NCBI GenBank assembly: GCA_016186995.1
Contig: JACPKQ010000010.1
Location: 2,970-66,969 of the forward strand
Direction: 5' to 3'
Length of the DNA stretch: 64,000 bases
Origin: Deltaproteobacteria bacterium
GTDB lineage: Bacteria; Bdellovibrionota; JACOXK01
In this document: positions 1,712 through 23,317 of the stretch, piece by piece
Numbering within the stretch: the first letter of the stretch is position 1
How the letters are laid out: each line of letters starts with the position of its first letter
Made by a program: the position numbers and the translations under genes
The notes under the pieces: model-generated
Told to the model about the DNA's origin: nothing
The model's database searches: none
Seen by the model: the letters and a program-made list of their open reading frames with translations, nothing else

Positions 1712-1715
1712 TAAA

Positions 1716-3092
1716 TCAGAAAAAAAGCTCGAGAGCCTTTTCGATATTAGAAACCCCCACGAGTTCAATACCCTTGATAGATTTTAGCTTAGAAAGGTTT
1801 TTTTGAGGAAGAACACATTTTTTAAACCCTAGTTTTTTGGCCTCGCCCACCCGTACATCAACGCCTCGAACAGCCCTGAGCTCTCCAGAAAGCCCCACCT
1901 CACCAATAGCTAAAACATCGTGTGGTAAAGATACATTTTTAAAACTACTCATCACAACTAAAAGTGTTCCTAAATCAGAAGCGGTTTCTTGAATTTTAAT
2001 ACCACCCGCAACATTCACATAAACATCATGCCCAGCTAAAATAATGCCTGAAGATTTTTCTAAAACAGCCAATAAAAGAGAAACTCTTTGTGGATCAAGC
2101 CCTAACGTTGTACGTCTTGGGGCTGCAAAACTAGTTTGCGAAACAAGCGCTTGAAGCTCCACCAAAATGGGTCGCGTTCCTTCCAAAGAAGAAACAACAA
2201 TAGAGCCAGGGTTTTTTTCTTCACTTCTTTCAGATAAAAAGAAACTAGAAGGGTTATTAATTTCCACAAGTCCCTTTTCTTGCATTTCAAAAACTCCAAT
2301 TTCATGGGTGGATCCAAACCTATTTTTAATGGATCTTAAAATTCGAAATGAAAGTGTTGGATCAGAATCAAAATAAAGAACCGTATCAACCATGTGTTCT
2401 AAAACACGAGGTCCTGCAATAGAGCCTTCTTTTGTAACATGCCCCACAATAAAAGTTGCAATATTATTTTTCTTAGCCAAATACATAAGTCGCGCTGCAC
2501 AGTGCCTAACTTGGCTTACGGTACCTGGCGCTGATTCAAGTTCTTGAGAAAAAAGTGTTTGAATAGAATCAATAACAAGAATATGGGGTTTTAATTTCTC
2601 ACAATGAGACATTACTTTTTCAAGCCCGGTTTCAGAAAGAACAAAAAGGTTTTTTTGTGAAATCCCTAAGCGCTCTGCCCTCATTTTGACTTGTAATAAA
2701 GACTCTTCAGCAGAAACGTACAAAACATTTAGTTTTTGCTTTGTGGTATTTCCCACTACTTGTAAAAGAAGGGTTGATTTACCAATACCCGGATCTCCAC
2801 CTACAAGCGTTAAAGAACCTTGTACAATTCCCCCACCCAAAACTCGATCGAGCTCTGCAATGCCGGTTGTCATTCGGGTTTCTTCCTCACAATTGATTTG
2901 ATCTAATGTAATAGGCTTATCTTGAGAGAATTCTAGATTCTGATGTTTCTTGGGAGCTTCAATAATATCTTCATAAAAAGTGTTCCACTCATTACAAGAT
3001 GGACACTTTCCCATCCACTTTTGAGTATTATAACCACAACCCGAGCAACAATATTGAGTGTTCTTTTTCATTAAAACCATCCTACCAGCCAA
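1716..3092 (-). CDS. radA: DNA repair protein RadA/Sms
   Basis: C4 zinc finger CSGCGYNTQKWMGKCPSCNEWNTF, Walker A GGDPGIGKSTLLLQ, the KNRFG motif and a Lon-protease-like C-terminal domain. Confidence 0.95.
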   Translation of the reverse strand: MAGRMVLMKKNTQYCCSGCGYNTQKWMGKCPSCNEWNTFYEDIIEAPKKHQNLEFSQDKPITLDQINCEEETRMTTGIAELDRVLGGGIVQGSLTLVGGDPGIGKSTLLLQVVGNTTKQKLNVLYVSAEESLLQVKMRAERLGISQKNLFVLSETGLEKVMSHCEKLKPHILVIDSIQTLFSQELESAPGTVSQVRHCAARLMYLAKKNNIATFIVGHVTKEGSIAGPRVLEHMVDTVLYFDSDPTLSFRILRSIKNRFGSTHEIGVFEMQEKGLVEINNPSSFFLSERSEEKNPGSIVVSSLEGTRPILVELQALVSQTSFAAPRRTTLGLDPQRVSLLLAVLEKSSGIILAGHDVYVNVAGGIKIQETASDLGTLLVVMSSFKNVSLPHDVLAIGEVGLSGELRAVRGVDVRVGEAKKLGFKKCVLPQKNLSKLKSIKGIELVGVSNIEKALELFF

Positions 3093-3123
3093 AGTTGTAT
3101 TTTCAATGTTATATGCTAATAAA

Positions 3124-3753
3124 ATGTGCGTGCTTCAGGTTTCTGAAATTTATTACAGTATTCAAGGAGAATCTTCATTTCGAGGAGAGCCTTGTATTTT
3201 TATTCGCCTTACAGGGTGCGATCTTCGCTGCAGCTGGTGTGATACAGAATATTCTTTTTACGGTGGTAAAAAAATGAATATTTCTAAAATTTTGAATGAA
3301 GTTTCCAGATTTCCTTGTAAACTTGTTGAAATTACAGGTGGAGAACCCCTTTTACAAAAAGAGACTCCAAATCTTTCTCAAAGCCTTTTAAATGAAGGAT
3401 ATACAGTACTTTTAGAAACAGGGGGGCATAAAGATATTCAAAATATTCCTAAAGAAGTAATTACTGTTATGGATATTAAAACCCCTAGTAGTGGAGAAGC
3501 AGAAAAAAATAATTGGGACAATTTAAAATATCTAAAGCCACACGATGAAATTAAATTTGTGATTCAAGACAGAAACGATTTTGAGTGGGCAAAAAAAACT
3601 GTCCAAGAAAAATTAAAAAAAATAGAAAACCTCATTCATTTTTCTCCTGTGTTCAAAAAAATGAACCCCCACACACTTTCAAAATGGATTTTAAACGAAA
3701 ATCTTCCTGTTAAGTTTGGAACTCAACTACATAAAGAATTAGGACTGCCCTAA
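3124..3753 (+). CDS. queE: 7-carboxy-7-deazaguanine synthase QueE, radical SAM
   Basis: IQGESSFRGEPCIFIRLTGCDLRCSWCDT is the QueE N-terminus and Cys cluster. ITGGEPLLQ is also present. The start was chosen at the ATG at 3124 (MCVLQVSEIY) so the gene does not overlap divergent radA. Starts at 3058 or 3106 are possible alternatives. Confidence 0.8.
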   Translation: MCVLQVSEIYYSIQGESSFRGEPCIFIRLTGCDLRCSWCDTEYSFYGGKKMNISKILNEVSRFPCKLVEITGGEPLLQKETPNLSQSLLNEGYTVLLETGGHKDIQNIPKEVITVMDIKTPSSGEAEKNNWDNLKYLKPHDEIKFVIQDRNDFEWAKKTVQEKLKKIENLIHFSPVFKKMNPHTLSKWILNENLPVKFGTQLHKELGLP

Positions 3754-7489: not shown

Positions 7490-9016
7490 TTAAAGCCCTT
7501 TTTTACTTTTAAATTTTTTATTATAAGCTTCAAGTGTTTGATTGAGTTTTGTTTTAAGCCCATCATCAAATGCTTTTTTTGTTTTAAGTAATTCAAGCGT
7601 TTCTTTTCCTTCTGAAAGCATATAATCAGTCAAGCCTTGTTCCCACTCACTTAAAACACCAACAGGTAAACTATCTACAAAACCATTAACCCCTGCATAA
7701 ATAGTAATGATCTGCATTTCTACCTGTTGAGGCACATATTGATCTTGTTTTAAAAGTTCAACAAGCCTTTCTCCTCTCTCAAGCTGCTTTCTTGTAGTAA
7801 CATCAAGATCACTTGCGAATTGAGAAAAGGCTGCAAGTTCCCGATATTGTGCCAAGTCTAAACGTAGTGTTCCGGCTACTTGTTTCATAGCTTTCACTTG
7901 AGCCGCGCCCCCAACCCGAGAAACCGAATTACCAACATTAATAGCAGGGCGAACACCTGAGTTAAAAAGATCTGATTCTAAAAAGATTTGCCCATCGGTA
8001 ATAGAAATAACATTTGTTGGAATATAGGCTGAAATATCTCCTGCTTGAGTTTCAATAATAGGGAGTGCTGTTAAAGAACCGCCTCCTTCTTCTTCACTCA
8101 TCTTAGCAGCACGCTCAAGAAGCCTTGAGTGAAGATAAAAAACATCCCCGGGAAAAGCTTCACGCCCTGGAGGGCGTCTTAAAAGGAGGGAGAGTTGTCG
8201 ATAAGCTTGCGCTTGTTTTGTAAGATCATCATAGATAACAAGAGCATGTTTACCATTATCCCTAAAATATTCTCCAATGGTTGCTCCTGCATAAGGAGCC
8301 AAAAATTGAAGTGGTGCTGGGTCACTCGCTGTTGCACTCACAATTGTTGTGTACTCCATAGCACCCTGTTGTTTTAGTTTTTCAATAACCATAGCAACAG
8401 TAGATCTTTTTTGACCGATCCCTACATAAATGCACTGAACATTTTTGCCTTTTTGGTTAATAATCGTATCAACTGCAACAGCTGTTTTACCCGTTTGTCT
8501 GTCACCAATAATAAGTTCTCTTTGTCCACGACCAATCGGAACCATAGAATCAATACATTTGAGACCTGTTTGAAGTGGTTCACACACAGGTTGTCTTTTA
8601 ACAATTCCAGGGGCTTTAACCTCAATCTGCCTTTTTTGGGTTGTTTTCAGAGGAGCCCCTCCATCAAGAACCTGTCCTAATGGATCAACCACCCTTCCCA
8701 AAACTTCCTCTCCAACTGGGATAGAAACAATTTCTTTTGTTCTTTTGACAGTGTCCCCTTCGCGAATATCATAATCATGTCCAAAAATGGCAACCCCAAC
8801 ATTATCTTCTTCAAGATTAAGAACCGTACCGTAAATATTTCCAGGCAACTCAACAAGCTCTCCCATCATGACTTCATCAAGTCCATGAATGCGAGCAACT
8901 CCGTCACCCACCTCTAAAACTGTTCCTGTTTCAGAAACAACAACTTTCTTTTCATAGTTTTGAATTCTTTCCTGAATAATCCGACTGATTTCTTCTGATC
9001 TTACTTCCATACTCAT
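7490..9016 (-). CDS. atpA: F1 ATP synthase alpha subunit
   Basis: [18 protein letters not shown] Walker A. Full-length 508 aa alpha. Confidence 0.95.
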
Positions 9017-9034: not shown

Positions 9035-9562
9035 TTATTTAAACATTAATTCCAATTGTGTTTTAAGACTTCCATCTAAAACCCTGCTTCCAACCTTCGT
9101 AATCATCCCGCCTAAAATTGTGGGGTTAATAACAAAGGTAGGAATAACTTTTTTCTTAAGAGTTTTTTCTAAACTTTCGGTCACTTCTTTTTTAAAACTT
9201 TCCGTTAAACTTGTAGCCGTTGTAATAACAGGTCTTTCAATTCCTTCTACTTGATCTAAAATTTTTTCAAACTCTTTTGCCATTTCTAAAAAGATCCGTC
9301 CTCTCTTTTTCTCATACAACAATAATAAAAAGTTTTTGGTTTCTTTTTGGAAAGAATATTTCATTACAATATCTTCTATAATTTCTTTTACCTCTGAAAA
9401 CGAAAAAACTGAACCATAATAAATACTTCTAAGATTTTGATTTATCTCTAATGCTTTAGAAAATATTTCTAAATCAGAACGTGTTTTTTTTTCTTTCTTG
9501 CTCTCTTGTGCTATATCAAAAAAGGCCTTTGCATATGTTCTTGCAACCTTTGTATGTTTCAT
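9035..9562 (-). CDS. atpH: F1 ATP synthase delta (OSCP) subunit
   Basis: VARTYAKAFFDIAQE opening is typical of OSCP/delta. 175 aa. It sits between atpF and atpA. Confidence 0.8.
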   Translation of the reverse strand: MKHTKVARTYAKAFFDIAQESKKEKKTRSDLEIFSKALEINQNLRSIYYGSVFSFSEVKEIIEDIVMKYSFQKETKNFLLLLYEKKRGRIFLEMAKEFEKILDQVEGIERPVITTATSLTESFKKEVTESLEKTLKKKVIPTFVINPTILGGMITKVGSRVLDGSLKTQLELMFK

Positions 9563-10044
9563 CGCAAACTTTGAACCTCTTCGAGCTTTTTAAGATATTC
9601 TTTGTTAAGCTTGTCGTGCGCTTTTGTATCTAAATTATTTTGAAAAATATTTTGTGTCTCTTCAAAAAGTTTTTGCTTTATTTCTTTTTCTAATCTGTTC
9701 TTAAAGTTTATCGCTTGAAGCGCTGCTTTTTGTTTTGCATCTTCTTCAATTCTTCTAAGTTCTTCTTCTGATTTGTGTGTTTGGTGAAGACGAAGCTTTT
9801 CAATATCTTTTTCAACTTCTTCCTTTAAAACTTTTTTGTATTGGTCAATATTTTTTATTCTCTCTCTACTTTTTTTTAGTGCTTGGTCGGCAAAGTCTTT
9901 TAACTCTGTTGATAAACGAATATCTTCTACAACTTTTGTGTTTCGTTGGTTCATAGCAGTTTGAGTTGGTTTTTTTAAAAGAAAATAAAGAAGGGCAACA
10001 AAAACTAAGAAATTAATAATTGTATAAAGCAATTCCATGTTCAT
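9559..10044 (-). CDS. atpF: Fo ATP synthase b subunit
   Basis: Single N-terminal TM helix followed by a long charged coiled coil. 161 aa. The position is conserved. Confidence 0.75.
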   Translation of the reverse strand: MNMELLYTIINFLVFVALLYFLLKKPTQTAMNQRNTKVVEDIRLSTELKDFADQALKKSRERIKNIDQYKKVLKEEVEKDIEKLRLHQTHKSEEELRRIEEDAKQKAALQAINFKNRLEKEIKQKLFEETQNIFQNNLDTKAHDKLNKEYLKKLEEVQSLR

Positions 10045-10046: not shown

Positions 10047-10541
10047 CTATTCTCGTGCTGACACTGATGAAGCATTATTTGAATGAGAAGTTGTTGAAAT
10101 TGAAAAGGGCACAAGCTTTTTTAAAATCTCTTCTGTTAATTCTCTCGTATCCTTTTTCAAAGCTTCTTTTGATAAACAATATTCTTCTTCTGAGCGTTTT
10201 TTTGCTTCACCTACAACTTTCGTAGCTGTATTTCGTGCTTCGTTAATTTTTTCTTCATTTTTTTTAAGTACTTCTTTCTTCTTAAACTCATAAAGCTCCC
10301 CTGTTTTTTTCTTTTCAGTGTTGAGCTCTTGATTAAACTCCTGATCAAGCTTTTCTGCCTGAATTCTATGTTCACGGCTCTCTTGTTTCATGTTACTTAC
10401 CCGTTTTTTTCTTTCATTCACAATTTCCAATATGGGACGAAAAAAAAAGATGTTAAGAAAAAAAATAAGTGCAACAAAAAGTCCTATAACATAAGGTAAA
10501 TATTTCAAATTTTCCAAAATGCTCAAATTTTCTGAGATCAC
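10047..10541 (-). CDS. Fo ATP synthase b' subunit, second b-type subunit
   Basis: Second b-like protein with one N-terminal TM helix plus a charged helix. It appears to start with GTG. A tandem b/b' arrangement occurs in alpha- and delta-proteobacteria and in phototrophs. Confidence 0.65.
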   Translation of the reverse strand: MISENLSILENLKYLPYVIGLFVALIFFLNIFFFRPILEIVNERKKRVSNMKQESREHRIQAEKLDQEFNQELNTEKKKTGELYEFKKKEVLKKNEEKINEARNTATKVVGEAKKRSEEEYCLSKEALKKDTRELTEEILKKLVPFSISTTSHSNNASSVSARE

Positions 10542-10610: not shown

Positions 10611-11039
10611 TTAGGCTGTCTTTGCGGTTGTCCTGGGTATTGCCTTTCCATCATCAGCAAGAAGATGGGGTTCTTTTTGCTTTTCCATTTTTGTACTCCC
10701 TTCATAATGGACTCCTTCTTCAATATAAAGAGAAGGTGTCTTTATATTTCCTTTAAAAATAGCTGGGGCATAAATCTCAACTTTTTCCTTTGCAACAACA
10801 TCTCCAACCACTTCACCTGTAATAATAATAGAGTTTACTTCAATATTAGCAATAATACGCGCACCTTCACCTACAATGAGCGTATCACTTGCCAAAATTT
10901 CTCCTTTAAATTTTCCTGCAATACGAGCAGTTCCCTGAAAAGAAAGCTTGCCCTCAAATTCACAACCAGCTTCTAAAATAGCGGTTACATGCTCATAACT
11001 TTCTACTGTTTTTGCTTCTTTCTTCTTTCTAAAAAACAT
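10611..11039 (-). CDS. bactofilin (DUF583/CcmA family) cytoskeletal protein
   Basis: Repeating beta-helix rungs: ARIAGKFKGEILASDTLIVGEGARIIANIEVNSIIITGEVVGDVVAKEKVEIYAPAIFKGNIKT. N-terminal MFFRKKKE matches the bactofilin membrane-targeting motif MFxKKK. It lies immediately downstream of parB. Confidence 0.8.
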   Translation of the reverse strand: MFFRKKKEAKTVESYEHVTAILEAGCEFEGKLSFQGTARIAGKFKGEILASDTLIVGEGARIIANIEVNSIIITGEVVGDVVAKEKVEIYAPAIFKGNIKTPSLYIEEGVHYEGSTKMEKQKEPHLLADDGKAIPRTTAKTA

Positions 11040-11040
11040 T

Positions 11041-11904
11041 TTAGGCCTCCAATTTTTGGATCATGTCAACAATTCGTATTAAATCCTCTTTAGAATAAAA
11101 CTCAATTGCAATTCTTCCTCTGTTTTTAGCAGAGTTTGAAATCATGACCTTTGTTTTAAAAATATTTCTTAAAAGCTCTTCTGTTGATCTTATTTCAGGT
11201 GCGCGTTGTGGTTGAGTGAGGAGTGCAGCCTTCTTTTCTCTTATAAACTGCTCTGTTTCCCGAACGCTGAGTCTTTTTTTTAAAACAACCTCAAGTCCTT
11301 GTACCCTCTCACTTTCAGAAGAAAAAGAAAGAATAGCTCTTGCATGTCCCATTGAAATCTGACCTTGAATAATGGAGTTTTGAATATTCACTGGCAACTC
11401 AAGAAGTCTTAACGTATTTGCAATATGACTCCTATCTTTTCCCACCTTTTCTGCAAGTTCTGATTGGGTATAATGATGTTGTTCTATAAGGCGTTGATAG
11501 GCTGTTGCCTCTTCAACACAATTAAGATCTGCTCTTTGGATATTCTCAATAAGAGCAATTTCCAAGGTCTCGTGATCTTGAAAATTTTGTATTAAAGCAG
11601 GCACATGTGATAATCCTGCTTTTTGTGCAGCACGCCAACGCCTTTCTCCGGCAACAATTTCATAAACTCCGTTTTTTTCTCGAACAAGAACAGGCTGAAG
11701 AACCCCGTGCTTACGAATAGATTGGGAAAGCTCTAACAATTCTTTGTCAGCAAAGTGCTTTCTGGGTTGAAATTCATTAGGTTTAATTTTAGAAACTTCT
11801 AGTTTTTGAATATTTTTTTTCCTAAGCTCTTTTTCCTCTTCTATAGTAGCTGCATCGGGTATCAGAGATGATAAACCACGTCCTAGTCTATTTTGAGTAT
11901 CCAT
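11041..11904 (-). CDS. parB: chromosome partitioning protein ParB/Spo0J
   Basis: GRGLSSLI, the ParB box VLQPVLVRE....YEIVAGERRWRAA, and an HTH domain. Confidence 0.95.
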   Translation of the reverse strand: MDTQNRLGRGLSSLIPDAATIEEEKELRKKNIQKLEVSKIKPNEFQPRKHFADKELLELSQSIRKHGVLQPVLVREKNGVYEIVAGERRWRAAQKAGLSHVPALIQNFQDHETLEIALIENIQRADLNCVEEATAYQRLIEQHHYTQSELAEKVGKDRSHIANTLRLLELPVNIQNSIIQGQISMGHARAILSFSSESERVQGLEVVLKKRLSVRETEQFIREKKAALLTQPQRAPEIRSTEELLRNIFKTKVMISNSAKNRGRIAIEFYSKEDLIRIVDMIQKLEA

Positions 11905-11925
11905 TGAATATCCTCCTCAATTATA

Positions 11926-12747
11926 TTAAGAGCTGATTGGCGGTTGTAAAACTTGTTCCTGTGTTTTAGAAACTAGTTTTGTTTCAACCTTTGGCTCTTG
12001 TCTTTTTAATAACTCCTCCGCCAAACTTAAATAAGAAGAAGAACCCTTTGATTCGATATCATAAAGTAGTATAGGCTTTCCATGACTAGGGCTTTCCGAA
12101 AGTCTAATATTTCTTGGGATCATAATATCAAAAACGTTCTCCTTAAAATGAGCCCGAACCTCTGAAACAACCTGGTGAGACAACTTATTTCTTGGATCAT
12201 ACATAGTGAGCAAGATCCCTTCTCGTCTTAAGTTTTGGTTTAGCCCTTTTTTGATAAGTTGTACTGTGTTTACAAGCTTTGAAAGTCCTTCCATTGCAAA
12301 GTATTCACACTGCATAGGTACTAAGTAGCTGTGTGCGGCCACTAAAGCATTAATGGTCAAAAGTCCAAGAGAGGGGGGGCAATCAATAAAAATATAGTCA
12401 TAGTCATTAAGTATAGGCTCCAAATACTCTTTAAGTTTGTTTTCCCTACCAAGCACTGAAACAAGCTCAATCTCAACTCCAACAAGGCCCTGATCCGAGG
12501 GAATAATATCAAGAAACTGAAGCTCAGTCTTTATGATTGCCTCTTTAGCTGGAATTTTTCCTATCATGACGTGATAAAGGTTTTTATCAAATCCTGCAAT
12601 CCCAAGTCCGCTTGTTGCATTGGCCTGGGAATCCATATCTATAAGAAGGGTTTTCTTCTCAGAAATAGCAATAGAAGCAGCAAGGTTAATAGCTGTTGTT
12701 GTCTTTCCAACGCCACCTTTTTGATTTGCGATAGCAATAATCTTTGC
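11926..12747 (-). CDS. parA: chromosome partitioning ATPase ParA/Soj
   Basis: Deviant Walker A KIIAIANQKGGVGKTTTAINLA. Likely start is MAKIIAIANQ at 12747. The ORF extends to 12771. It has a roughly 20-aa C-terminal extension relative to a typical Soj. Confidence 0.95.
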   Translation of the reverse strand, partial: AKIIAIANQKGGVGKTTTAINLAASIAISEKKTLLIDMDSQANATSGLGIAGFDKNLYHVMIGKIPAKEAIIKTELQFLDIIPSDQGLVGVEIELVSVLGRENKLKEYLEPILNDYDYIFIDCPPSLGLLTINALVAAHSYLVPMQCEYFAMEGLSKLVNTVQLIKKGLNQNLRREGILLTMYDPRNKLSHQVVSEVRAHFKENVFDIMIPRNIRLSESPSHGKPILLYDIESKGSSSYLSLAEELLKRQEPKVETKLVSKTQEQVLQPPISS

Positions 12748-12853
12748 CATTAAGTAAAAAAAGTAAATCAAATTTGTTAATAGTCAACTCATCTTTGAAA
12801 CCCCTTGAAACTCAAGCCCTCCAAGAGGTCTTTTTCAAAACATTTTTTGAATA

Positions 12854-12869
12854 TGTTTCACGTGAAACA
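12854..12869. promoter_or_regulatory. parS: parS centromere site, perfect 16-bp palindrome TGTTTCACGTGAAACA
   Basis: Exact match to the pan-bacterial parS consensus tGTTNCACGTGAAACa. It is about 100 bp upstream of parA. Confidence 0.85.
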
Positions 12870-12926
12870 TATATATTTATGATTATCCATTTGATATTTA
12901 TTTATGTTATAAAGAATATTCACGAT

Positions 12927-12942
12927 GTTTCACGTGAAACAC
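12927..12942. promoter_or_regulatory. parS: second parS site, identical TGTTTCACGTGAAACA
   Basis: Second perfect copy 73 bp from the first, in the same intergenic region. Confidence 0.85.
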
Positions 12943-13065: not shown

Positions 13066-14097
13066 ATGAAAAAGTTTATGTTGTTTTTTGTTTTTTTATT
13101 AACAGTGGGGTGTTCAAAAACACAAAATCAGGAAATAAACCCAAACACTGTACTTGCCAAAGTTGAGGGTGAGGACATTAAATGGAAAGATGTAGAGAAT
13201 GAGCTCGGAACACAGCTTGCTTATATGGAACAGAAGTACCAAGAAAGTGTTTATAATACAAAAAAGCAGTATCTTGAAAGGCATATTGGAGATTTGATCC
13301 TTAAAAAAGAGGCGGACAAAGAAAAAATAACCCCTGAGGAGCTCTTAAATCGTGAAACTTCTCAAGGAACTACAATATCAGACAAAGAAGTAGAAGATTT
13401 TTATAAACAAAACGAAGCTTTTTTAAAATCTCGCTTTCCTGGTGATAAAAAGCCTGAGTTAATATCAAAAATTAAGGTTGGTTTAGGTAATCAACGTAAA
13501 GCACAAGCCCACCAAGACTATATTGAGCGTCTTAAAGAAAAATATAAGGTTGAATTTTTAATTCAAGCTCCACGCATTGAGGTAAGCGCTGATGATGATC
13601 CTTATCTTGGGAGTAAAAATGCAAAAGTTACCATTATAGAGTTTTCTGACTTTACATGTCCTTATTGTTCTCAAGCAGCCAAAACTGTAAGAACAGTTAT
13701 GAGCGATCCTAAATATCAAAATAACGTTAAATTGGTTTATAGAGACTCTCCAACAGATAGAAGACCAGCGTCTTTTCCAGCTGCCTTGGCTGCACAATGT
13801 GCTTTTGAGCAAAATAAGTTCTGGGAATACCACGACATAGTATTTGAAAACCAAGCTCGTCTCAGTGTTGATGTTCTTAAAGAGTTTGCCCAAAGTGTTG
13901 GGCTTGATATGAACCAATTCAATGCTTGTCTTGATACCAAAAAATACGATGCTGAGGTTAATAAAGACCTTAGAGATGGGTTTAAGGCTGGTATTTCTGG
14001 TACACCCACTTTCTTTATCAATGGAAAGATGGCTCAAATACCACCAGGTGATGCGGGTGCTCAAGTACTTAAAAAGTTGATCGATGAAGAGCTTTAA
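13066..14097 (+). CDS. DsbA-family thiol:disulfide oxidoreductase lipoprotein with an N-terminal chaperone-like domain
   Basis: Lipoprotein signal MKKFMLFFVFLLTVGCS. Thioredoxin-fold active site FSDFTCPYCSQ (CPYC) in the C-terminal half. RBS aaaggagaag upstream. Confidence 0.75.
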   Translation: MKKFMLFFVFLLTVGCSKTQNQEINPNTVLAKVEGEDIKWKDVENELGTQLAYMEQKYQESVYNTKKQYLERHIGDLILKKEADKEKITPEELLNRETSQGTTISDKEVEDFYKQNEAFLKSRFPGDKKPELISKIKVGLGNQRKAQAHQDYIERLKEKYKVEFLIQAPRIEVSADDDPYLGSKNAKVTIIEFSDFTCPYCSQAAKTVRTVMSDPKYQNNVKLVYRDSPTDRRPASFPAALAAQCAFEQNKFWEYHDIVFENQARLSVDVLKEFAQSVGLDMNQFNACLDTKKYDAEVNKDLRDGFKAGISGTPTFFINGKMAQIPPGDAGAQVLKKLIDEEL

Positions 14098-14754
14098 TTA
14101 ACAAATAGAATAGATAGCTCTTGGATATTTTTGATCAAAGGCGTGTTCTATTTCTTTGTTAAGATGGTAAATATTTTCAAAAGTGTTTTCTTGTTCAGCT
14201 TTGTTGAAAGATCTTCCTGTATATAAAAATATTTTTCCATTTTCTGATAAAAATGCTTTTAGAAAATCGATCATTTCTTTATTCGGTTTAATAGCTCTAA
14301 AAAGAATAATGTCCACTTTTTTACCCTTTAAAAAAAAATCTAAATCCGCCCTAGCTTTCCAATCTATATGAATATTCGTTGAATAGGCTTTTTTAAAACC
14401 CAACGTTCTCATGACTTGTTTTTGAAAAAATACTTTTTTTTCTTTTGCATCCACCGAAAAGAGCACCAAAGAAGGATTTGCGATTTTTAAAGGTATCCCT
14501 GGAAACCCAGCTCCAGAGCCAATATCCAAACATGTTCTTTTTCCTTGTATAAGTGAAAAACCAAGGAGCGAGTCTGCAAAGTGTTTTTGAATGATTTCTT
14601 CTTCTTCCTCTATACTTGAGAGATTAATCTTGACCACCCACTTTTTATAAATATGCAGGTATTGAAAAAACTGTTTCAATTGTTTTTCATCAAGAGAAAC
14701 GTTTATCTCTGAGCATAATTTTAAAAGTTTTTTAGAAAATTCTTCAAAGCTCAT
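14098..14754 (-). CDS. rsmG: 16S rRNA m7G527 methyltransferase RsmG (GidB)
   Basis: SAM-binding LDIGSGAGFPGIPLKI. 218 aa. Confidence 0.9.
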   Translation of the reverse strand: MSFEEFSKKLLKLCSEINVSLDEKQLKQFFQYLHIYKKWVVKINLSSIEEEEEIIQKHFADSLLGFSLIQGKRTCLDIGSGAGFPGIPLKIANPSLVLFSVDAKEKKVFFQKQVMRTLGFKKAYSTNIHIDWKARADLDFFLKGKKVDIILFRAIKPNKEMIDFLKAFLSENGKIFLYTGRSFNKAEQENTFENIYHLNKEIEHAFDQKYPRAIYSIC

Positions 14755-15105: not shown

Positions 15106-16989
15106 TTATTTTAACTTCCTTTGCTCAAAAGACCGTTTTTTTAAGTAGATCATAAGATTTGTCATGGCAGAGGGGGTTACACCTGAAATACGACTTGCTT
15201 GGCCCAGAGAGGCGGGTTTTACTTTTTCAAGTTTTTCAATGACCTCACGTGAAAAACCAGGGATATTCGAATAAATAAAATCTTTTGGAATTCTTAAAGA
15301 TTCTAATTTTTTAAACTGCTGAATTGATTCTTCTTGTTTTTCAATATATCCTTTAAACTTAATATCAATTTCAAGTTCTTTTCCGACTGAACCATCACAA
15401 ATATTAACATCAAACAAAGAAAGGTTCTCATAACCTATTTCAGGCCTTCTTAAAAGCTCTTCAAGACTTATCATTTTTTTTGGAGTAGCTGTTTTGATCT
15501 TTTCAAGTTTTAAAATGTTTTCATTTGAAGGAGAAATTTTTGTTTCTTTTATTTTCTTTCTAAGTTCATCCAAGCTTTCTTTTCTTTTTTCAAAAACATT
15601 CCAACGGTCATCTCGGATAAGCCCTATTTCCCGCGCCTTTTCTGTAAGTCTTAAATCAGCGTTTCCTTCCCTTAAAAGCAAGCGGTACTCAGCGCGAGAA
15701 GTCATCATCCTATAAGGATCTTCTACACCCTTAGTAATAAGATCATCAATAAGGACACCAATATAAGCTTGTGATCGATCTAAAATAAACGGCTCTTTTC
15801 CTTTACAATGTAAAGCTGCATTAATACCCGCCACAAGCCCCTGGGCCGCAGCTTCTTCATAACCACTTGTCCCATTAATTTGACCAGCCAAATAAAGACC
15901 CTCCACTTGTTTTGTTTCAAGCGTTGGTTTTAACTGAGTAGGCTTTGCGTAGTCATACTCAACAGCATATCCAGTTCTTGTCATTTCAACGTTTTCTAAC
16001 CCTGAAATCGATCTTAAAAGTTCTATTTGAACATCAACAGGAAGCGAGGTTGAAGCTCCATTAATATAAACCTCAGTTGTATTAAGTCCCATAGGCTCTA
16101 AAAAAATCTGGTGTCTTTCCCTATTTGAAAAACGAACAATTTTATCTTCTATAGAAGGGCAATACCGTGGGCCTGTAGATTTAATAATACCAGCATAAAG
16201 CGGGGACTTGTGAAGATTTTTTCTAATAATTTCATGTGTTTGGGTGTTTGTATAAGTAATAAAACAGGATACTTGGGGTTGTGGAAGGGTTTTTGTCAAA
16301 AAAGAAAATGGGGTTGGATTTTTGTCCCCGGGTTGTTCTAAACACTTTGAGTAGTCAATGGTAAGTCCATCAAGTCGTGGGGGGGTTCCTGTTTTAAACC
16401 GACCTAATTCTATTCCTAAAGAAGTCAAACATTGTGAAATACCACCACTTGTTCCTTCCCCAGCTCTTCCACCACTTTTACTTTTAGTTCCAACGTGTAA
16501 AAGGCCATTCATAAAAGTTCCTGTTGTAATGATGATACATCGTGAAAAAAAAGTTTCTCCAATATTTGTTTTAACTCCTTTCACTTGATCATTTTTAATC
16601 AAAAGCCCTTCAACAATTTGTTGTTTAAGAAAAAGGTTCTCTTGTTTTTCCAAAACAGATTTCATTCTGAGAGCATAAAGGTATTTATCAGACTGACATC
16701 GAGAAGATTGAACAGCAGCCCCTTTGCGTGTGTTAAGTTGTCGAAACTGAATACCTGTTGCGTCTGCATTAAGCCCCATCTCTCCACCCAACGCATCAAT
16801 TTCTTTAACAAGATGCCCCTTACCCAGACCCCCAATGGCTGGGTTACAACTCATGGCAGCAACAACCTCAATATTCATGGTAAGAACAAGCGTTTTTAAA
16901 CCTAATCGAGCCCCCGCAAGCGCAGCTTCACACCCTGCATGCCCCGCCCCAACAACAATAACATCATATTGATTGGAATAAATCGCCAT
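15106..16989 (-). CDS. mnmG: tRNA uridine-5-carboxymethylaminomethyl synthesis enzyme MnmG (GidA)
   Basis: FAD motif YDVIVVGAGHAGCEAALAGARLG. 627 aa. Confidence 0.95.
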   Translation of the reverse strand: MAIYSNQYDVIVVGAGHAGCEAALAGARLGLKTLVLTMNIEVVAAMSCNPAIGGLGKGHLVKEIDALGGEMGLNADATGIQFRQLNTRKGAAVQSSRCQSDKYLYALRMKSVLEKQENLFLKQQIVEGLLIKNDQVKGVKTNIGETFFSRCIIITTGTFMNGLLHVGTKSKSGGRAGEGTSGGISQCLTSLGIELGRFKTGTPPRLDGLTIDYSKCLEQPGDKNPTPFSFLTKTLPQPQVSCFITYTNTQTHEIIRKNLHKSPLYAGIIKSTGPRYCPSIEDKIVRFSNRERHQIFLEPMGLNTTEVYINGASTSLPVDVQIELLRSISGLENVEMTRTGYAVEYDYAKPTQLKPTLETKQVEGLYLAGQINGTSGYEEAAAQGLVAGINAALHCKGKEPFILDRSQAYIGVLIDDLITKGVEDPYRMMTSRAEYRLLLREGNADLRLTEKAREIGLIRDDRWNVFEKRKESLDELRKKIKETKISPSNENILKLEKIKTATPKKMISLEELLRRPEIGYENLSLFDVNICDGSVGKELEIDIKFKGYIEKQEESIQQFKKLESLRIPKDFIYSNIPGFSREVIEKLEKVKPASLGQASRISGVTPSAMTNLMIYLKKRSFEQRKLK

Positions 16990-16990: not shown

Positions 16991-18379
16991 TTACTTTCCT
17001 ATACAAAATTCTGAAAAAATTTTTTGAATGACCTCTTCAGAGGTTGTTTCTCCAGTTATTTCTCCTAAAAGATGGAGCGCCTCACTAACATCACAAGCTA
17101 AATATTCTAAAGAAATTTTATTTTGAATACCTTCTTTTAAAGATTGAATTTTTTCGTTTGTTTTTTCGAGAATTTCATAGTGTCTTTGGTGTGTGACTAT
17201 AAATTCCGCATCGTTTATTTCTTTTTCTAGATAATTTTCTTTTAAAAATCTCTTTAGTTCATCAATACCCTCGCCACTTTTAGCTGAAACATAAAAACTG
17301 TTTTGGAAAAATATTTGTGGGGTGTTTCTTTTTCCAAGATCAGCTTTATTCAAAAGAAGGACACAGTGTTCTTTCTTATCATGCAGCCATGTTAAAATTT
17401 CGTGATCTTCTTTTTGAAAATCTTCATGTGCATGAACAACAACAAAAATAATATCTGCAGAATTTATGGCTTTTTTTGTTCTTTCAATACCCTGCTTTTC
17501 AACTACATCTTCTGTTTTGTGAACACCTGCTGTATCAAGAATTTCTATTTCGCTTTGATCAAAAAATACGGTTTCATAGAGCACATCTCGTGTTGTCCCA
17601 GGAACTTCTGTCACAATAGCCCTTTCCTCATTTAAAAAGGCATTAAATAAACTTGATTTACCTACATTGGGCTTTCCTACAAAAACAACTTTTAAACCCT
17701 GCATTAATTTTTGGTTTTGTTTATACGATGTAGTAAGCCCTTCAACTTTTTTTTGAAGGTTTTCAGTTTTATTCAAAAGAAATCCATCTTGAGAAAACTC
17801 CTTAACATCTCCCTCTGTTTCAAAATCAAGGTGTGCTTCAATATGAGAAAGCGTTTGCACGAGCGCCTCTTTAAGTTCTTTAAGAATGCCAAAAAACTCT
17901 CCTTTGAGTTGTTTGTGAGCAAGCTTTCTTGTTAGAGAAGACTTTGAGTGAATAAGTCCTGAAACAGCCTCGGCTTGTGTTAAGTCCATTTTTCCATTTA
18001 AGAACGCCCTGCTTGAAAACTCTCCAGGCTTGGCAAGCCTTCCACCATTTTGAACGCAAAGATGAAGAATATCATTTAAAATATGTGGGTTCCCGTGGGC
18101 ATAAATCTCAATCATATCCTCACCTGTATAGGATTTCGGATTTTTAAAATAAGAAAGACATACTTCATCAACTCTTTCTTTTGTTTTTGGATTTTTAATT
18201 GTAGTTTTTATTATTTCATGAGACTTCAAGGGTTGTGATAACTTTGTTAGATTTTCAACAATAGCTAGCGCTTTGCTACCAGAAAGTCTTACAATGCCGA
18301 GAGCGCTCACCCCAATAGGTGTAGCTAGTGCACAAATAGTATCGTCAGTTTTATGAATTTGAGATAGGTGAAATAACAA
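16991..18379 (-). CDS. mnmE: tRNA modification GTPase MnmE (TrmE)
   Basis: TICALATPIGVSALGIVRLSG N-domain. G1 GKPNVGKSSLFNAFL. C-terminal CIGK. Confidence 0.95.
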   Translation of the reverse strand: MLFHLSQIHKTDDTICALATPIGVSALGIVRLSGSKALAIVENLTKLSQPLKSHEIIKTTIKNPKTKERVDEVCLSYFKNPKSYTGEDMIEIYAHGNPHILNDILHLCVQNGGRLAKPGEFSSRAFLNGKMDLTQAEAVSGLIHSKSSLTRKLAHKQLKGEFFGILKELKEALVQTLSHIEAHLDFETEGDVKEFSQDGFLLNKTENLQKKVEGLTTSYKQNQKLMQGLKVVFVGKPNVGKSSLFNAFLNEERAIVTEVPGTTRDVLYETVFFDQSEIEILDTAGVHKTEDVVEKQGIERTKKAINSADIIFVVVHAHEDFQKEDHEILTWLHDKKEHCVLLLNKADLGKRNTPQIFFQNSFYVSAKSGEGIDELKRFLKENYLEKEINDAEFIVTHQRHYEILEKTNEKIQSLKEGIQNKISLEYLACDVSEALHLLGEITGETTSEEVIQKIFSEFCIGK

Positions 18380-18815
18380 TTTTTTTATAACTCCCCTCTC
18401 CGATACTCTTTGTTGTTACTTGAGAATCTTCACTTAAAACTAAATGAACAATTCTTCTTTCAAAAGAGTTGAGGGGCCTCAATATAATAGTTCTATCTTC
18501 TTCTAAAGCTTTATCTCTCATCTCAAAAGCAAGTTTTTCTAAAAACTTTCTTCGTACTTCTGAGTTATCAATAGTAACACGAATCTTTTCATCTTCTTCA
18601 CAATCCTTATTAATCACGCGCCACAAAATATTTCTCAATGCTTCTGGTATAAGCGGGTTCTTGCCTAAAAGCTCTTCAGCGTCATCTCCGGTAGCTTGAA
18701 CAACCAAAGAGGTATCTTCGTTATTTTCATCGAGCTCAAAAGAAACACTATAGGCCATCCTTTTTTTAAGGCCTTCTAAAAAGTCAGCGGCTCTTTTTTT
18801 TACTTTTTCATTCAT
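18351..18815 (-). CDS. jag: Jag/KhpB-like RNA-binding protein (KH + R3H)
   Basis: C-terminal R3H motif LNSFERRIVHLVLSEDSQVTTKSIGEGSYKKIVISP. Conserved position downstream of yidC. Confidence 0.75.
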   Translation of the reverse strand: MNEKVKKRAADFLEGLKKRMAYSVSFELDENNEDTSLVVQATGDDAEELLGKNPLIPEALRNILWRVINKDCEEDEKIRVTIDNSEVRRKFLEKLAFEMRDKALEEDRTIILRPLNSFERRIVHLVLSEDSQVTTKSIGEGSYKKIVISPISNS

Positions 18816-18830: not shown

Positions 18831-20447
18831 TTATGCTGTGTGGACTGGTAGCTTTTTGTTAATAAGATACTGCTGTAAAAACGTCAAGACAGTGTTGCAC
18901 AAGATATAGAGGGTTAATCCTGAAGGGAGCCAAAATAAAATAACCGAAAAAATAAGTGGGGTCATCATCATCATTTTTGCTTGGGCTGGATCCCCCATTG
19001 TTGGAGTCGACTTTTGTTGAATAAACATCACAATTCCTGTTAAAATCGGGGTAATAAAATAAGGATCTTTCATAGAAAGATCTTGAATCCAAAAAATAAA
19101 AGGCGCACCCCTTAACTCAATAGAACTTCCAAAAACCCTATAAAGAGCAATAAATACAGGCATTTGAAGAAGCATGGGTAAACACCCACCCATGGGGTTT
19201 ACTTTGTTTGATTTCATGAGTTGCATAATTTCTTTGTTTAATCTTTCTTTATCATCTTTATATTTTTCTCTTATTTTTTTCATTTGGGGCTGAATTCTTT
19301 GCATTTCTCGCATGGATTTAAAACTTGTGTGGGTTAAAGGATAAAGAACAAGCTTAACCAAAATGGTTAAAAGAATAATGGCTAAGCCGTAATTTTGAAA
19401 TAAGTTATAAAGTTTTTTGAGAACCCAAAGAAGTGGCATGGCAATAAAACGAAACCACCCATAATCGATTGAATTTGCTAATGTTGATGATACAGATCCT
19501 AAAAGATCCATTTCTTTTGGTCCTTTAAAAAGAGAAAACCCAAAGAGTGTTTTTTTTTCCTGAATGGGATATTTAAGATAAGATTTAATGATGCCGTTTT
19601 CTATACCAATCCATACTTTGGGGAGGCCAAATCGATATCGAGCTTCGCCATTTTCTTCATATTGATGAACAAGTGTTGAGATAAAATACTGCTCGTCTGT
19701 TCCAACCCATAGGACTTTTGCATTGAGCTTTTCTGTAAGATCTTTTCCTTCTTGAATGCTTTCAAGATTTTCTGTGTGCAATCCACTTTCAGAGTTTGCA
19801 AATAAAACTCTCTGTACGTTTCCTTGTGGGCTAAAAAAACTTCCTTTTTGCCCCTCTAAAAAGCGATCTGTTATATAAAAATTGAGTGTTCCACTGCCCA
19901 CATCTCTTTTGGCTTCAAATAAAATTTTAACTTTGATTTGATATGTTTTTGGATCAATTTCATATTTTTTTTCTACTTTTAAATCACCATCTTCATAAAC
20001 AAAAAGAAGTGTGTTTGCTTCTTGTTGTGTAAGTTTATAAGGAAAAAGTAACTTTGTTCCTTTTTCTGATGTAAAGGTAGAACCCAAAGTTATGGTCTCC
20101 GGGGTTATTCCTTCTTGCTTTATAAGTTCATAGGGTTTTTTGTTTGAATCTAAATATTTTTTAAGCTTCCAACTTATCACACCCCCACTTTCTTTATCAA
20201 GCAGGGCTTCATAAAAATTGTTTTCTATTGTGAGGGTGTTTTTGATTTCTTTTTTTACAAAAACTTTTTCAAAAAAACCAGGCTTTTCGCTTTTCTCTGC
20301 GAGATGTGACTGTGGGGCTTCGTTTTGTACAACGCTTTCTTGTTGTGTTGTATTTTGGTTCGGCACTTCAGTGGGTTGAAAAAGTCTATACCACAAAATA
20401 AAAATGAGAAAACAAAGCACAATTGCTAAAAGACCATTTTTTTCCAT
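18831..20447 (-). CDS. yidC: membrane protein insertase YidC
   Basis: 538 aa. N-terminal TM, large periplasmic domain, C-terminal 5-TM core with the conserved Pro-rich motifs. Confidence 0.95.
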   Translation of the reverse strand: MEKNGLLAIVLCFLIFILWYRLFQPTEVPNQNTTQQESVVQNEAPQSHLAEKSEKPGFFEKVFVKKEIKNTLTIENNFYEALLDKESGGVISWKLKKYLDSNKKPYELIKQEGITPETITLGSTFTSEKGTKLLFPYKLTQQEANTLLFVYEDGDLKVEKKYEIDPKTYQIKVKILFEAKRDVGSGTLNFYITDRFLEGQKGSFFSPQGNVQRVLFANSESGLHTENLESIQEGKDLTEKLNAKVLWVGTDEQYFISTLVHQYEENGEARYRFGLPKVWIGIENGIIKSYLKYPIQEKKTLFGFSLFKGPKEMDLLGSVSSTLANSIDYGWFRFIAMPLLWVLKKLYNLFQNYGLAIILLTILVKLVLYPLTHTSFKSMREMQRIQPQMKKIREKYKDDKERLNKEIMQLMKSNKVNPMGGCLPMLLQMPVFIALYRVFGSSIELRGAPFIFWIQDLSMKDPYFITPILTGIVMFIQQKSTPTMGDPAQAKMMMMTPLIFSVILFWLPSGLTLYILCNTVLTFLQQYLINKKLPVHTA

Positions 20448-20665
20448 TATGATTTCCTTGGTACTAAATCTATACCACCTTTATGAAGCGGGTGGCACTT
20501 CAAAATCCTCTTTATACTTAAGCAAAAAGCTTTTATAAAATGAAACTCTTTAAAACACTGTTCAGAATACTCGGAACAAGAAGGGAAAAATCGACATTTT
20601 TTTCCAAAAAATGGAGAAACACAAAAACGATAAACTCGAATAATAAATAAAAAAAATAATTTCAT
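20447..20665 (-). CDS. yidD: membrane protein insertion efficiency factor YidD
   Basis: RFCVSPFFGKKCRFFPSCSEYSEQC...HPLHKGGIDLVP is the YidD signature. Confidence 0.85.
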   Translation of the reverse strand: MKLFFLFIIRVYRFCVSPFFGKKCRFFPSCSEYSEQCFKEFHFIKAFCLSIKRILKCHPLHKGGIDLVPRKS

Positions 20666-20967
20666 TATAAAGAGATTCCGCTTGCAAAATTTTCAAAATT
20701 CTTTTGACAATGTTTTAAATTAATATCTGTCGCATTTTTCTTGGCAACAATAACCATGTCAATTTCTTCAAAACGGTTTTGGTTATATCTGTAGGCCTCT
20801 TTAGTAACCCTTCGAATACGGTTTCTTATAACCGCCTTGCCTACTTTTCTACTTGTGATAATTCCTAAGCGTCCTTCACCCTTTTCCCAAAAGAAAATAA
20901 AGTTTTGAGTCAATTGTTTTTTTCCTGAAAAAAGCAATCGTTTAAAATCTCTTTTACGAGAAAGCAT
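20665..20967 (-). CDS. rnpA: RNase P protein component RnpA
   Basis: LSRKRDFKRLLFSGKK...GRLGIITSRKVGKAVIRNRIRRVTKEAYR contains the RNR motif. The start is placed at the ATG at 20967 because the longer track ORF would overlap rpmH. Confidence 0.8.
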   Translation of the reverse strand: MLSRKRDFKRLLFSGKKQLTQNFIFFWEKGEGRLGIITSRKVGKAVIRNRIRRVTKEAYRYNQNRFEEIDMVIVAKKNATDINLKHCQKNFENFASGISL

Positions 20968-20986
20968 TTTACTTTGTCTGTAAAAT

Positions 20987-21136
20987 TTATTTCTTGCTGG
21001 TTGTGGGGACAATGCTTTTTCTACCTTTACGGCGTCTTCTCCTAAGAACATTCCTCCCCCCCGGTGAACTCATTCGAGATCTAAACCCATGAGTTCTCTT
21101 TCTTTTTATTCTACTTGGCTGATAAGTTCTTTTCAT
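20987..21136 (-). CDS. rpmH: 50S ribosomal protein L34
   Basis: Manual translation of the reverse strand from ATG at 21134-21136 gives [49 protein letters not shown]. This is the canonical L34 sequence. At 49 aa it is below the size cutoff of the supplied ORF track. Confidence 0.85.
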
Positions 21137-21265
21137 TTTATAACCCTTTAATCTAAAAGCTTTTTCTATAAAGCAATAAAGCTATTGTCAAAAAAAATCT
21201 TGCCTGTTAGATTTTCGACCTTAAGGTCACAAATGTAATGTGTTGTGCCAAAATAAGGTAACCTT

Positions 21266-22714
21266 ATGACAGAATTATGGGAATCAACTCTTAAAGGCAT
21301 TCGAGAGCGCGTTAACGAGCAGAGCTTTAAAACGTGGTTAGCGCCTTTAAAACTCGTTTCCGTTAAAAATGACTTAGTCGAAATTCAAGTTCCTAATAAA
21401 TTTTTTGAAGATTGGATCAATGAAAATTACATCTCCATGATTAAAGAAGAGCTTTTCAAAAATGCCAGAAAACCCTATGAAATCCTCTTTAAAATTGCAG
21501 AACAGCAAGCACAACAAATGCTAAACCTTTCTCAAAATGCATCCACAAACCCACCTGTAAAAACCGGAATATCTCTTTCTAAGAGTTCTCCTATGATAAA
21601 CTCTCAAAATATTTCTCACAACAAACCACCACTTCAATCCACTCAGGATGTCAAAATTTTTGATTCAGCAACACCTGTGAGAGCTTCGGGTGGAGATTAC
21701 ATTAACCCTAAATATACATTCGATAGCTTTGTTGTTGGCTCAAGTAATCAATTTGCTCATGCTGCAGCCTTTGCGGTTGCTGAGCAACCAGCACGAAACT
21801 ATAATCCCCTCTTTGTTTTTGGGGGCGTGGGTCTTGGAAAAACACACCTTGTCAATGCTATCGGAAATCATGCTCTTAAAAAACAGCCCCACCTTAAAGT
21901 GTGTTTTGTTTCTTCAGAAAAGTTTGTTAATGAGCTTATCAACTGCTTGCGATATGAAAAAATGGATGTTTTCAGAAAAAAATATAGAGAGGGCTATGAT
22001 ATTCTCCTGATGGACGACATCCAGTTTATTGCTGGCAAAGACAGAACACAAGAAGAGTTTTTTCACACTTTTAACACTCTTCACAGCTCCAGAAGACAAA
22101 TCGTAGTCACCTCTGATAAATACCCCAAAGACATTCCATTTCTTGAAGAGCGCTTAAGGACACGCTTTGAGTGGGGTCTTATAGCAGATATTCAACCACC
22201 AGAAATGGAAACGCGACTTGCCATTCTTAAAAACAAAGCGGAGCTCGATGATATTTATTTACCTGATGAAGTGGGTATTTTTCTTGCTTCTAATATTAAA
22301 TCAAACGTCCGTGAACTTGAAGGTTCTCTTATTCGTGTTGGTGCTTTTGCATCACTCACAGGAATGGAAATTACAGTTGATCTTGCCAAAGAAATTCTAA
22401 AAAATATTATCAAGGATAAAGATAGAGAAGTCACAATCGAAAACATTCAAAAAGCCACATGTTCTTTTTTTGATATGAAGATTTTAGATCTTAAATCAAA
22501 GAAAAAAAATAAACTCTTAAGCACACCACGCCAAATTGCCATGTTTTTGTGTAGAAAGCATACAAAAGAATCCTTTCCAGAAATTGGCAAGCGTTTTGGT
22601 GGCAAAGACCACTCTACTGTTATTCATGCCGTTTCAAAAATTACAGAAGAACTTTCTAAAGATGTTGCCCTAAGAAATACGATTGCCTCCATTGAACGCT
22701 TGGTAGACGTCTAA
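21266..22714 (+). CDS. dnaA: chromosomal replication initiator DnaA
   Basis: AAA+ Walker A FVFGGVGLGKTHL. C-terminal DNA-binding domain HTKESFPEIGKRFGGKDHSTVIHA. 482 aa. Confidence 0.97.
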   Translation: MTELWESTLKGIRERVNEQSFKTWLAPLKLVSVKNDLVEIQVPNKFFEDWINENYISMIKEELFKNARKPYEILFKIAEQQAQQMLNLSQNASTNPPVKTGISLSKSSPMINSQNISHNKPPLQSTQDVKIFDSATPVRASGGDYINPKYTFDSFVVGSSNQFAHAAAFAVAEQPARNYNPLFVFGGVGLGKTHLVNAIGNHALKKQPHLKVCFVSSEKFVNELINCLRYEKMDVFRKKYREGYDILLMDDIQFIAGKDRTQEEFFHTFNTLHSSRRQIVVTSDKYPKDIPFLEERLRTRFEWGLIADIQPPEMETRLAILKNKAELDDIYLPDEVGIFLASNIKSNVRELEGSLIRVGAFASLTGMEITVDLAKEILKNIIKDKDREVTIENIQKATCSFFDMKILDLKSKKKNKLLSTPRQIAMFLCRKHTKESFPEIGKRFGGKDHSTVIHAVSKITEELSKDVALRNTIASIERLVDV

Positions 22715-22762
22715 AAAGAATCATACAATACCACTTTATACACAGACCCCATTTTCCCTTAA

Positions 22763-22801
22763 ATGTTGAAATCTTGTGAATAAACATGTTGAAATCTTGT
22801 G
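22763..22801. repeat. tandem 16-bp direct repeat ATGTTGAAATCTTGTG, two copies with 23-bp period
   Basis: Copies at 22763-22778 and 22786-22801. The first abuts a TGTGAATAA DnaA box. Confidence 0.8.
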
Positions 22802-22891
22802 TTTTGAGTGTTGAGCTGATGTTAAAGCAATCTCACAATAAACAGATTTTCACACTATATTCACATGTGTATAAACACATAAAATATTAAT

Positions 22892-22930
22892 AATTTTAAT
22901 AAGTTAGGCAGGCTATAAACATTTTCACAG
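22892..22930. repeat. 39-bp perfect direct repeat, copy 1 (AATTTTAATAAGTTAGGCAGGCTATAAACATTTTCACAG)
   Basis: Identical 39-mer recurs at 23207-23245 inside oriC. Confidence 0.9.
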
Positions 22931-23206: not shown

Positions 23207-23245
23207 AATTTTAATAAGTTAGGCAGGCTATAAACATTTTCACAG
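23207..23245. repeat. 39-bp perfect direct repeat, copy 2
   Basis: Identical to 22892-22930. The two copies are 315 bp apart. Confidence 0.9.
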
Positions 23246-23317
23246 GGTTTACTACTACTACTGTATTTATATATTAAGTGATTAATAATAACTACAAGTT
23301 GTGAATAAGGAGGAATC

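Follow-up and report, generated by a model that had tools for sequence, protein, structure and literature searches.

Comparative analysis of a parA-parB-bactofilin locus beside the predicted replication origin of an uncultured bacterium

The locus described here consists of a chromosome partition operon, parA and parB, followed directly by a bactofilin gene. It lies in a stretch of 64,000 nucleotides (hereafter the window) of contig JACPKQ010000010.1, which comes from an uncultured bacterium of low GC content (~35%) whose closest relatives found are Bdellovibrionota. Our favoured explanation, to which we give a probability of about 0.75, is that this is an ordinary origin-proximal chromosomal ParABS operon with a BacM/Bd3904-type bactofilin, most likely a general membrane-bound scaffold. 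By similarity and synteny the third gene belongs to the BacM/Bd3904-type bactofilins, whose genes follow parB directly in Bdellovibrionota and Myxococcota, and the adjacency of parB and bactofilin would be an old, conserved gene order of the origin region, like gidA-gidB-parA-parB.

Taken alone, the window matters little, since it adds one case to a gene arrangement that has been published. The comparison with related loci nevertheless sharpens a question: in ~70 species from two phyla a bactofilin is kept directly behind parB, in most cases with its start codon overlapping the parB stop. The function of such a parB-linked bactofilin is known only from Myxococcus xanthus BacM, where it concerns cell shape and not segregation, and for Bdellovibrio there is only speculation.

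The ParABS operon

The window is, as judged from its gene content and base composition, a chromosomal replication-origin region, because it contains rnpA, dnaA, dnaN and gyrB together with the yidC-jag-mnmE-gidA-gidB genes, and because the cumulative GC skew switches at its minimum around 22-24 kb. The features of the partition locus are as follows.

12926-12941, 176 nt upstream of the parA ATG: parS site 2, palindrome TGTTTCACGTGAAACA identical to site 1, 0 mismatches
12854-12869, 104 nt upstream of the parA ATG: parS site 1, perfect 16-bp palindrome TGTTTCACGTGAAACA, 0 mismatches
11926-12750, minus strand: parA, 274 aa, deviant Walker-A ATPase (Pfam AAA_31, CbiA, ParA, MipZ)
12697-12720, minus strand: deviant Walker A motif KGGVGKTT of ParA, residues 11-18, read from the translation
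11929-12006, minus strand: C-terminal low-complexity tail of ParA, KRQEPKVETKLVSKTQEQVLQPPISS, residues 249-274, from the translation
11041-11904, minus strand: parB, 287 aa, with CTPase N-domain, helix-turn-helix (HTH) and C-terminal dimerisation domain (Pfam)
11860-11886, minus strand: N-terminal LGRGLSSLI peptide of ParB, residues 7-15, read from the translation
11629-11649, minus strand: GERRWRA box of ParB, residues 86-92, read from the translation
10611-11039, minus strand: bactofilin gene, 142 aa (Pfam PF04519; PDB sequence matches)
11016-11039, minus strand: N-terminal MFFRKKKE, candidate membrane-targeting sequence (MTS), which fits the published consensus
10692-10979, minus strand: bactofilin (DUF583) beta-helix core, residues 21-116 (Pfam PF04519)

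The ParA product starts with MAKIIAIANQKGGVGKTT (a mechanical list of open reading frames, ORFs, stretches the gene to an upstream TTG at 12771), matches AAA_31 with an E value of 3.2e-66 in addition to CbiA, ParA and MipZ, and carries the deviant Walker A signature KGGxGK[ST] of chromosomal ParABS systems. ParB combines an N-terminal CTPase domain with its GERRxRA box, an HTH domain and a C-terminal dimerisation domain (ParB_N 1.3e-36, HTH_ParB 2.9e-36, ParB_C 1.3e-5), and reaches 199 bits in TIGR00180 (parB_part), for which the cut-off is 58. It was also considered as a Noc protein, an assignment rejected on its 255.5 bits in the Noc model, under the cut-off of 315. The LGRGLSSLI peptide we take to be the conserved ParA-activating motif, and GERRWRA is presumably the CTP-binding motif of ParB CTPases.

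The palindrome TGTTTCACGTGAAACA occurs exactly twice in the whole window. The two copies are spaced by 72 bp, lie together in the 315 bp that separate parA from a divergently oriented gene for a DsbA-like lipoprotein, and are ~8.4 kb from dnaA, so that consensus 16-bp parS palindromes stand near oriC as expected of a chromosomal ParABS. When up to three mismatches were allowed, 0.46 sites were expected by chance in the window and one extra site was seen, with three mismatches; sites with at most two mismatches number two in total. On this evidence the ParA, ParB and parS set at the origin is complete. An initial annotation of the stretch had likewise described a complete ParABS module with two consensus parS sites, and the domain matches and perfect palindromes uphold it; its second palindrome, placed at 12927-12942, needed to be moved by one base to 12926-12941.

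From what is known of these protein families, ParB would be loaded onto the DNA as a clamp, dependent on CTP, at the parS pair in the promoter region of parA, and would then spread. ParA, as a deviant Walker-A ATPase, would move the ParB-parS complex over the nucleoid, stimulated by the N-terminal LGRGL peptide of ParB.

A bactofilin gene abutting parB

The third gene encodes a bactofilin. Its product matches PF04519 with an E value of 8.9e-27 and 93.7 bits (cut-off 27.9) over 97 of the 98 profile positions, a search that the initial annotation had proposed as a check on its call and that came out in its favour. Among PDB sequences it matches the Thermus thermophilus bactofilin (6RIA, 7.8e-8) and Caulobacter crescentus BacA (2N3D, 2.8e-7), and the Pfam and PDB sequence matches together settle the fold. 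Like these two proteins it has a beta-helix core, and its aromatic residue Y112 aligns with F130 of BacA, a polymerisation residue (PMC12448750). The published membrane-targeting consensus of bactofilins is MFSKKKK, and in BacA, which starts with MFSKQAKS, residues F2, K4 and K7 are critical (PMC12448750). The MFFRKKKE start of the window protein has the hydrophobic residue 2 and the basic residues 4 and 7 of this type (F2, R4, K7), a match at the level of sequence that agrees with the earlier reading of this N-terminus as a membrane-targeting motif. Through its beta-helix core the protein would assemble, independently of nucleotide, into filaments or sheets, which the arrayed N-terminal MFFRKKK peptides are predicted to hold on the cytoplasmic membrane. 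Unlike the window gene, neither bacA nor the T. thermophilus gene is linked to parB, and BacA recruits the cell-wall synthase PbpC.

The gene had been described as lying immediately downstream of parB, and the gap is indeed 1 nt. Because its ATG follows the parB stop codon after 1 nt, its ribosome-binding site (GGAGG) lies within the 3' end of parB and the two genes are not separated by a predicted terminator, the bactofilin is probably translated in step with ParB.

Conservation of the gene order

Relatives were collected as the 80 best bactofilin loci, one genome per species, in a scan seeded by an alignment of 13 close homologues, and synteny was assessed by tblastn of the window proteins against these 80 genome loci and 2 metagenome loci (n = 82). 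The window bactofilin itself has a 100% identical counterpart at NCBI, labelled as a protein of a "Deltaproteobacteria bacterium" metagenome-assembled genome. The 80 related bactofilins, 45-63% identical to that of the window, are those of Bdellovibrionota (Bdellovibrionia, Bacteriovoracia, Oligoflexia) and Myxococcota (Anaeromyxobacter, Polyangia). Of the 78 loci whose sequence was long enough for a judgement, 69 carry parB immediately before the bactofilin gene and in its orientation; atpA comes after it, in the same orientation, in 69 of 82. The usual order is gidA-gidB-parA-parB-bactofilin-atpF'-atpF-atpH-atpA, and a metagenome contig of 173 kb, read from precomputed Pfam labels, has gidA-gidB-parA-parB-bactofilin-atpF'FHAGDC. 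The window bactofilin is of this parB-linked type, its gene being the next after parB, in the same orientation, in a gidAB-parAB-bac-atp order. Coupling to parB is mostly tight: the stop codon of parB overlaps the bactofilin start in 39 of the 69 linked loci, and the two are within 11 nt of each other in 55. Five Anaeromyxobacter loci among the 80 best relatives (L067, L073, L074, L081 and L085) keep the parA-parB-bac-atp order with a gap of 63-179 nt, as against 1 nt in the window.

The parA-parB-bactofilin layout is therefore a widespread arrangement that has already been published, and the window is one more example of it. The initial annotation had viewed the single bactofilin without PadC as "minimal"; most of the informative relatives (69 of 78) have just this layout, which has been drawn and found co-transcribed in Bdellovibrio bacteriovorus (PMC7186360, PMC10547168).

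The nine loci in which parB is not upstream belong mostly to Polyangia or Myxococcales. In five of them, all from metagenome-assembled genomes of these groups (L070, L072, L077, L079 and L082), the bactofilin gene adjoins the atp operon and parAB is missing from the preceding 5 kb; a 983-aa ORF that resembles Ser/Thr kinases, identified by eye, stands upstream of the bactofilin in L072. Remoter bactofilin matches occur in other contexts, with P0029 and P0032 amid unrelated genes and P0031 beside an M23 peptidase, and on these comparisons linkage to parB is no longer predicted when bactofilin similarity falls below ~50%. The locus of P0034, a remoter homologue with 42% identity (L087, 2235-5072), has not one but two bactofilin genes in tandem after gidA-gidB-parA-parB.

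In the closest genome relative (L006), whose bactofilin is 59% identical and shares the MF.RKKK start, ~2.6 kb is inserted between the bactofilin gene and atpF'. The insert (879-3204) holds two small ORFs that by eye resemble a BrnT/BrnA-type toxin-antitoxin pair, a lipoprotein gene and, on the opposite strand, a gene for a secreted protein of 351 aa. It was considered as a possible source of a partner or PadC gene and set aside, as nothing ParB-like is inside.

Differences among related loci

The N-terminus is the part of the bactofilin in which the window departs from most relatives, having a canonical MF..KKK start where theirs is M[AS][RK]xxDLSVP. Among the 69 syntenic orthologues, the canonical MF start is otherwise found in two, L006 (MFIRKKKN) and L064 (MFGERAIKE). 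A different N-terminus, approximately M[AS][RK]xxDLSVP[VA]T, occurs in 31 of the 69, mainly in Bdellovibrionota (loci within L007-L066, for example L016, 4968-5010); we found no mention of this motif in the study of bactofilin membrane targeting PMC12448750, which mentions neither Bdellovibrionota nor Myxococcota. In Anaeromyxobacter the longest bactofilin ORFs (L067, 2624-3154; L085, 4896-5444) start with MPFWNKPR or MSFWSKLR, ~35 residues before an internal MAMLKRE start, which recalls the reported N-terminal processing of M. xanthus BacM.

The parS sites differ as well. Almost uniformly, the Bdellovibrionota relatives use the symmetric variant TGTTCCACGTGGAACA (73 instances) where the window has TGTTTCACGTGAAACA. 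Kaljevic et al. (2023) reported that the parS of Caulobacter is not bound by B. bacteriovorus ParB, and ParB-parS specificity may thus differ between the lineage of the window and those of its relatives. Of 63 related loci, 45 have one or more parS-like sites in the 600 nt preceding parA, and 25 have two or more.

The initial annotation had also drawn attention to a C-terminal extension of ParA. The tail KRQEPKVETKLVSKTQEQVLQPPISS is present, and there is nothing special about it: the stretch past the position of window residue 250 has a median length of 28 residues (range 5-69) in 63 related ParAs and is 24 residues long in the window protein. The tails are weakly conserved among relatives, and the Anaeromyxobacter ParAs (259 aa) have a short one only. 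The comparison thus indicates that the tail is a trait of the clade and is not peculiar to the window locus. The tails of 14 of the 63 Bdellovibrionota-type relatives contain PPPF (L008, L009, L010, L015, L026, L029, L033, L040, L052, L053, L057, L062, L065 and L066), for which the window has QPPI; PPPF may be a short linear interaction motif. No clear association was found among the related loci between PPPF in ParA and the DLSVP N-terminus of the bactofilin (both in 9, PPPF only in 5, DLSVP only in 20, neither in 29).

Comparison with characterized systems

In M. xanthus, bacM lies directly downstream of parAB, and an operon of its own holds bacNOP and padC (Lin et al. 2017, PMC5703909). The initial annotation had assigned the PadC-dependent scaffolding of ParABS to the bactofilins encoded next to parAB; the adjacent one is BacM, and the scaffold is encoded by the separate bacNOP-padC operon (PMC5703909). 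It is BacM (MXAN_7475) that shares with the window bactofilin its position relative to parAB (PMC5703909). Deletion of bacM leaves the localisation of ParA and ParB unchanged (PMC5703909), and BacM is N-terminally processed and maintains cell shape (PMC4372379).

The BacNOP-PadC system resembles the window in having polymers of the bactofilin family, predicted in the window, in an organism with ParABS. It is built differently, from three co-polymerising paralogues of which BacP has a long C-terminal tail, and it needs the ParB-like adaptor PadC (PMC5703909). The window has a single bactofilin with a 25-aa tail that abuts parB, and no second ParB-like ORF. When all six-frame ORFs of the 64-kb window were searched with phmmer and with hmmsearch profiles built from 70 ParBs and 82 bactofilins, no second ParB-like, ParA-like or bactofilin ORF was found. 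Nor was a PadC-like protein detected in the window, the part of the genome that this search covered, the next-best E value after parB being 1.4 in phmmer and 0.24 with the profile of 70 ParBs, which agrees with the earlier remark that a single bactofilin and no PadC-like gene were visible. The 82 related loci also yielded no second ParB-like ORF with phmmer and the ParB profile. A ParABS scaffold of the BacNOP-PadC type was accordingly rejected for the window, where there is no PadC-like gene and the single bactofilin adjoins parB instead of belonging to a separate operon.

The closest described counterpart is the locus of B. bacteriovorus, which comprises bd3908 (rRNA methyltransferase), bd3907, bd3906 (parA), bd3905 (parB) and bd3904 (bactofilin); two parS sites of identical sequence lie upstream (PMC10547168). 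Strain HD100 and the window are alike in gene order and strand logic, in a pair of identical parS sites that precede parA close to oriC, and in a bactofilin directly after parB. In B. bacteriovorus these three genes, bd3906-bd3905-bd3904 (parA3-parB-bactofilin), are co-transcribed, and the authors of that study raised the possibility that "something similar" to the scaffold of Myxococcus is at work there (PMC7186360). A 2023 review still lists the matter as unknown (PMC11318664), and we found no functional study of bd3904 in the literature. Bactofilins of Bdellovibrio sp. in the survey (L045, L051 and L060) are 54-56% identical to that of the window. The window departs from B. bacteriovorus in having the divergent DsbA-like lipoprotein gene between gidB and parA.

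Possible roles of the parB-linked bactofilin

What does a bactofilin do directly behind parB? A general role as a membrane-bound scaffold for cell shape, polarity or envelope, and not as a PadC-type scaffold of ParABS, seems most likely by analogy; it is ranked first because BacM, the only syntenic orthologue that has been tested, acts in cell shape and not in segregation. Several points weigh against this explanation. Tight coupling to parB across ~55 species could mean a true functional link with ParB, and the BacM result leaves other lineages open because the Anaeromyxobacter orthologues are less tightly coupled (63-179 nt). The orthology to BacM and Bd3904 is drawn through synteny and through the similarity of the Anaeromyxobacter (L085) and Bdellovibrio sp. 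loci (50-56% identity). Membrane binding may not be conserved across parB-linked bactofilins, because the canonical membrane-targeting sequence is found in 2 of 69 orthologues and the DLSVP-type motif in 31.

It is conceivable, if unlikely in our estimate, that the bactofilin is instead an organiser independent of PadC, whose membrane-bound polymers tether or position ParB-parS, ParA or both near a pole, making parA-parB-bac a three-protein module for segregation and anchoring. The overlap or near-abutment of parB and bactofilin is conserved in most of the 69 species and the synteny is maintained across two phyla, both of which speak for such a role, as does the co-transcription in B. bacteriovorus (PMC7186360); the idea itself has been raised for Bdellovibrio before (PMC7186360, PMC11318664). 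ParA tails, perhaps the contact, are found throughout the Bdellovibrionota relatives, with PPPF in 14 of 63, although they are poorly conserved and PPPF is unassociated with the N-terminal type of the bactofilin. The strongest form of this proposal, that a bactofilin translated with ParB is a direct, PadC-independent membrane anchor or ruler for ParB-parS, ParA or both throughout Bdellovibrionota, seems to us equally doubtful; its contact points would be the differing N-terminal peptides (a canonical membrane-targeting sequence in the window, the DLSVP type in most relatives) and the proline-rich ParA tails, and if it were true, parA-parB-bac would be the simplest origin-tethering module known. 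Against an organising role in partition stands BacM, the sole tested syntenic orthologue, which is without effect on the localisation of ParA and ParB (PMC5703909). The five Polyangia/Myxococcales loci that keep the bactofilin beside the atp operon without upstream parAB also argue against it. Moreover, gene order in the origin region is conserved elsewhere without shared function, gidA-gidB-parA-parB being an established example.

The same five loci, in which linkage to atp persists without upstream parAB, could be read as tying the bactofilin to the downstream ATP synthase operon, for example in organising F1Fo membrane domains, or as making it merely the first gene of that operon, unrelated to ParAB. 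Of the 82 loci, 69 have the atp genes, in the same orientation, as the next genes downstream, and the window has no predicted terminator separating the bactofilin from atpF'. Nevertheless, the window gene is 69 nt from atpF' and 1 nt from parB, most relatives couple the bactofilin to parB and not to atpF', and in L006 ~2.6 kb of unrelated genes separates it from atpF'. We know of no precedent for a link between bactofilins and ATP synthase, and we consider this explanation highly improbable.

Genomic context of the locus

On the downstream side, the ATP synthase genes begin 69 nt after the bactofilin gene.

10047-10541, minus strand: atpF'
9559-10044, minus strand: atpF
9035-9562, minus strand: atpH
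7490-9016, minus strand: atpA

The promoter and terminator scan predicted no minus-strand terminator from parA to atpF'. Promoter-like sites numbered 13 against 8.5 expected, a count that is uninformative, and Rfam gave no match at gathering thresholds anywhere in the window.

On the other side of parA, the following genes lead towards the predicted origin.

13066-14097, plus strand: DsbA-like lipoprotein
14098-14754, minus strand: rsmG/gidB
15106-16989, minus strand: mnmG/gidA
16991-18379, minus strand: mnmE
18351-18815, minus strand: R3H/Jag
18831-20447, minus strand: yidC
20665-21051, minus strand: rnpA
21266-22714, plus strand: dnaA

The product of 13066-14097 is a lipoprotein-like protein of 343 aa, whose N-terminal region is SurA-N-like and which contains a DsbA/thioredoxin domain. 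Since its gene lies divergently between rsmG and parA, the parS pair falls in a promoter region that the two divergent genes share; no homologue of the protein turned up when the 5 kb upstream at the related loci were searched by tblastn. Past dnaA, dnaN, gyrB and gyrA follow on the plus strand, so that the block of origin genes from rnpA to gyrA covers 20665-29370. The 600-bp spacer between dnaA and dnaN (22715-23317) is, by its position, a candidate for oriC.

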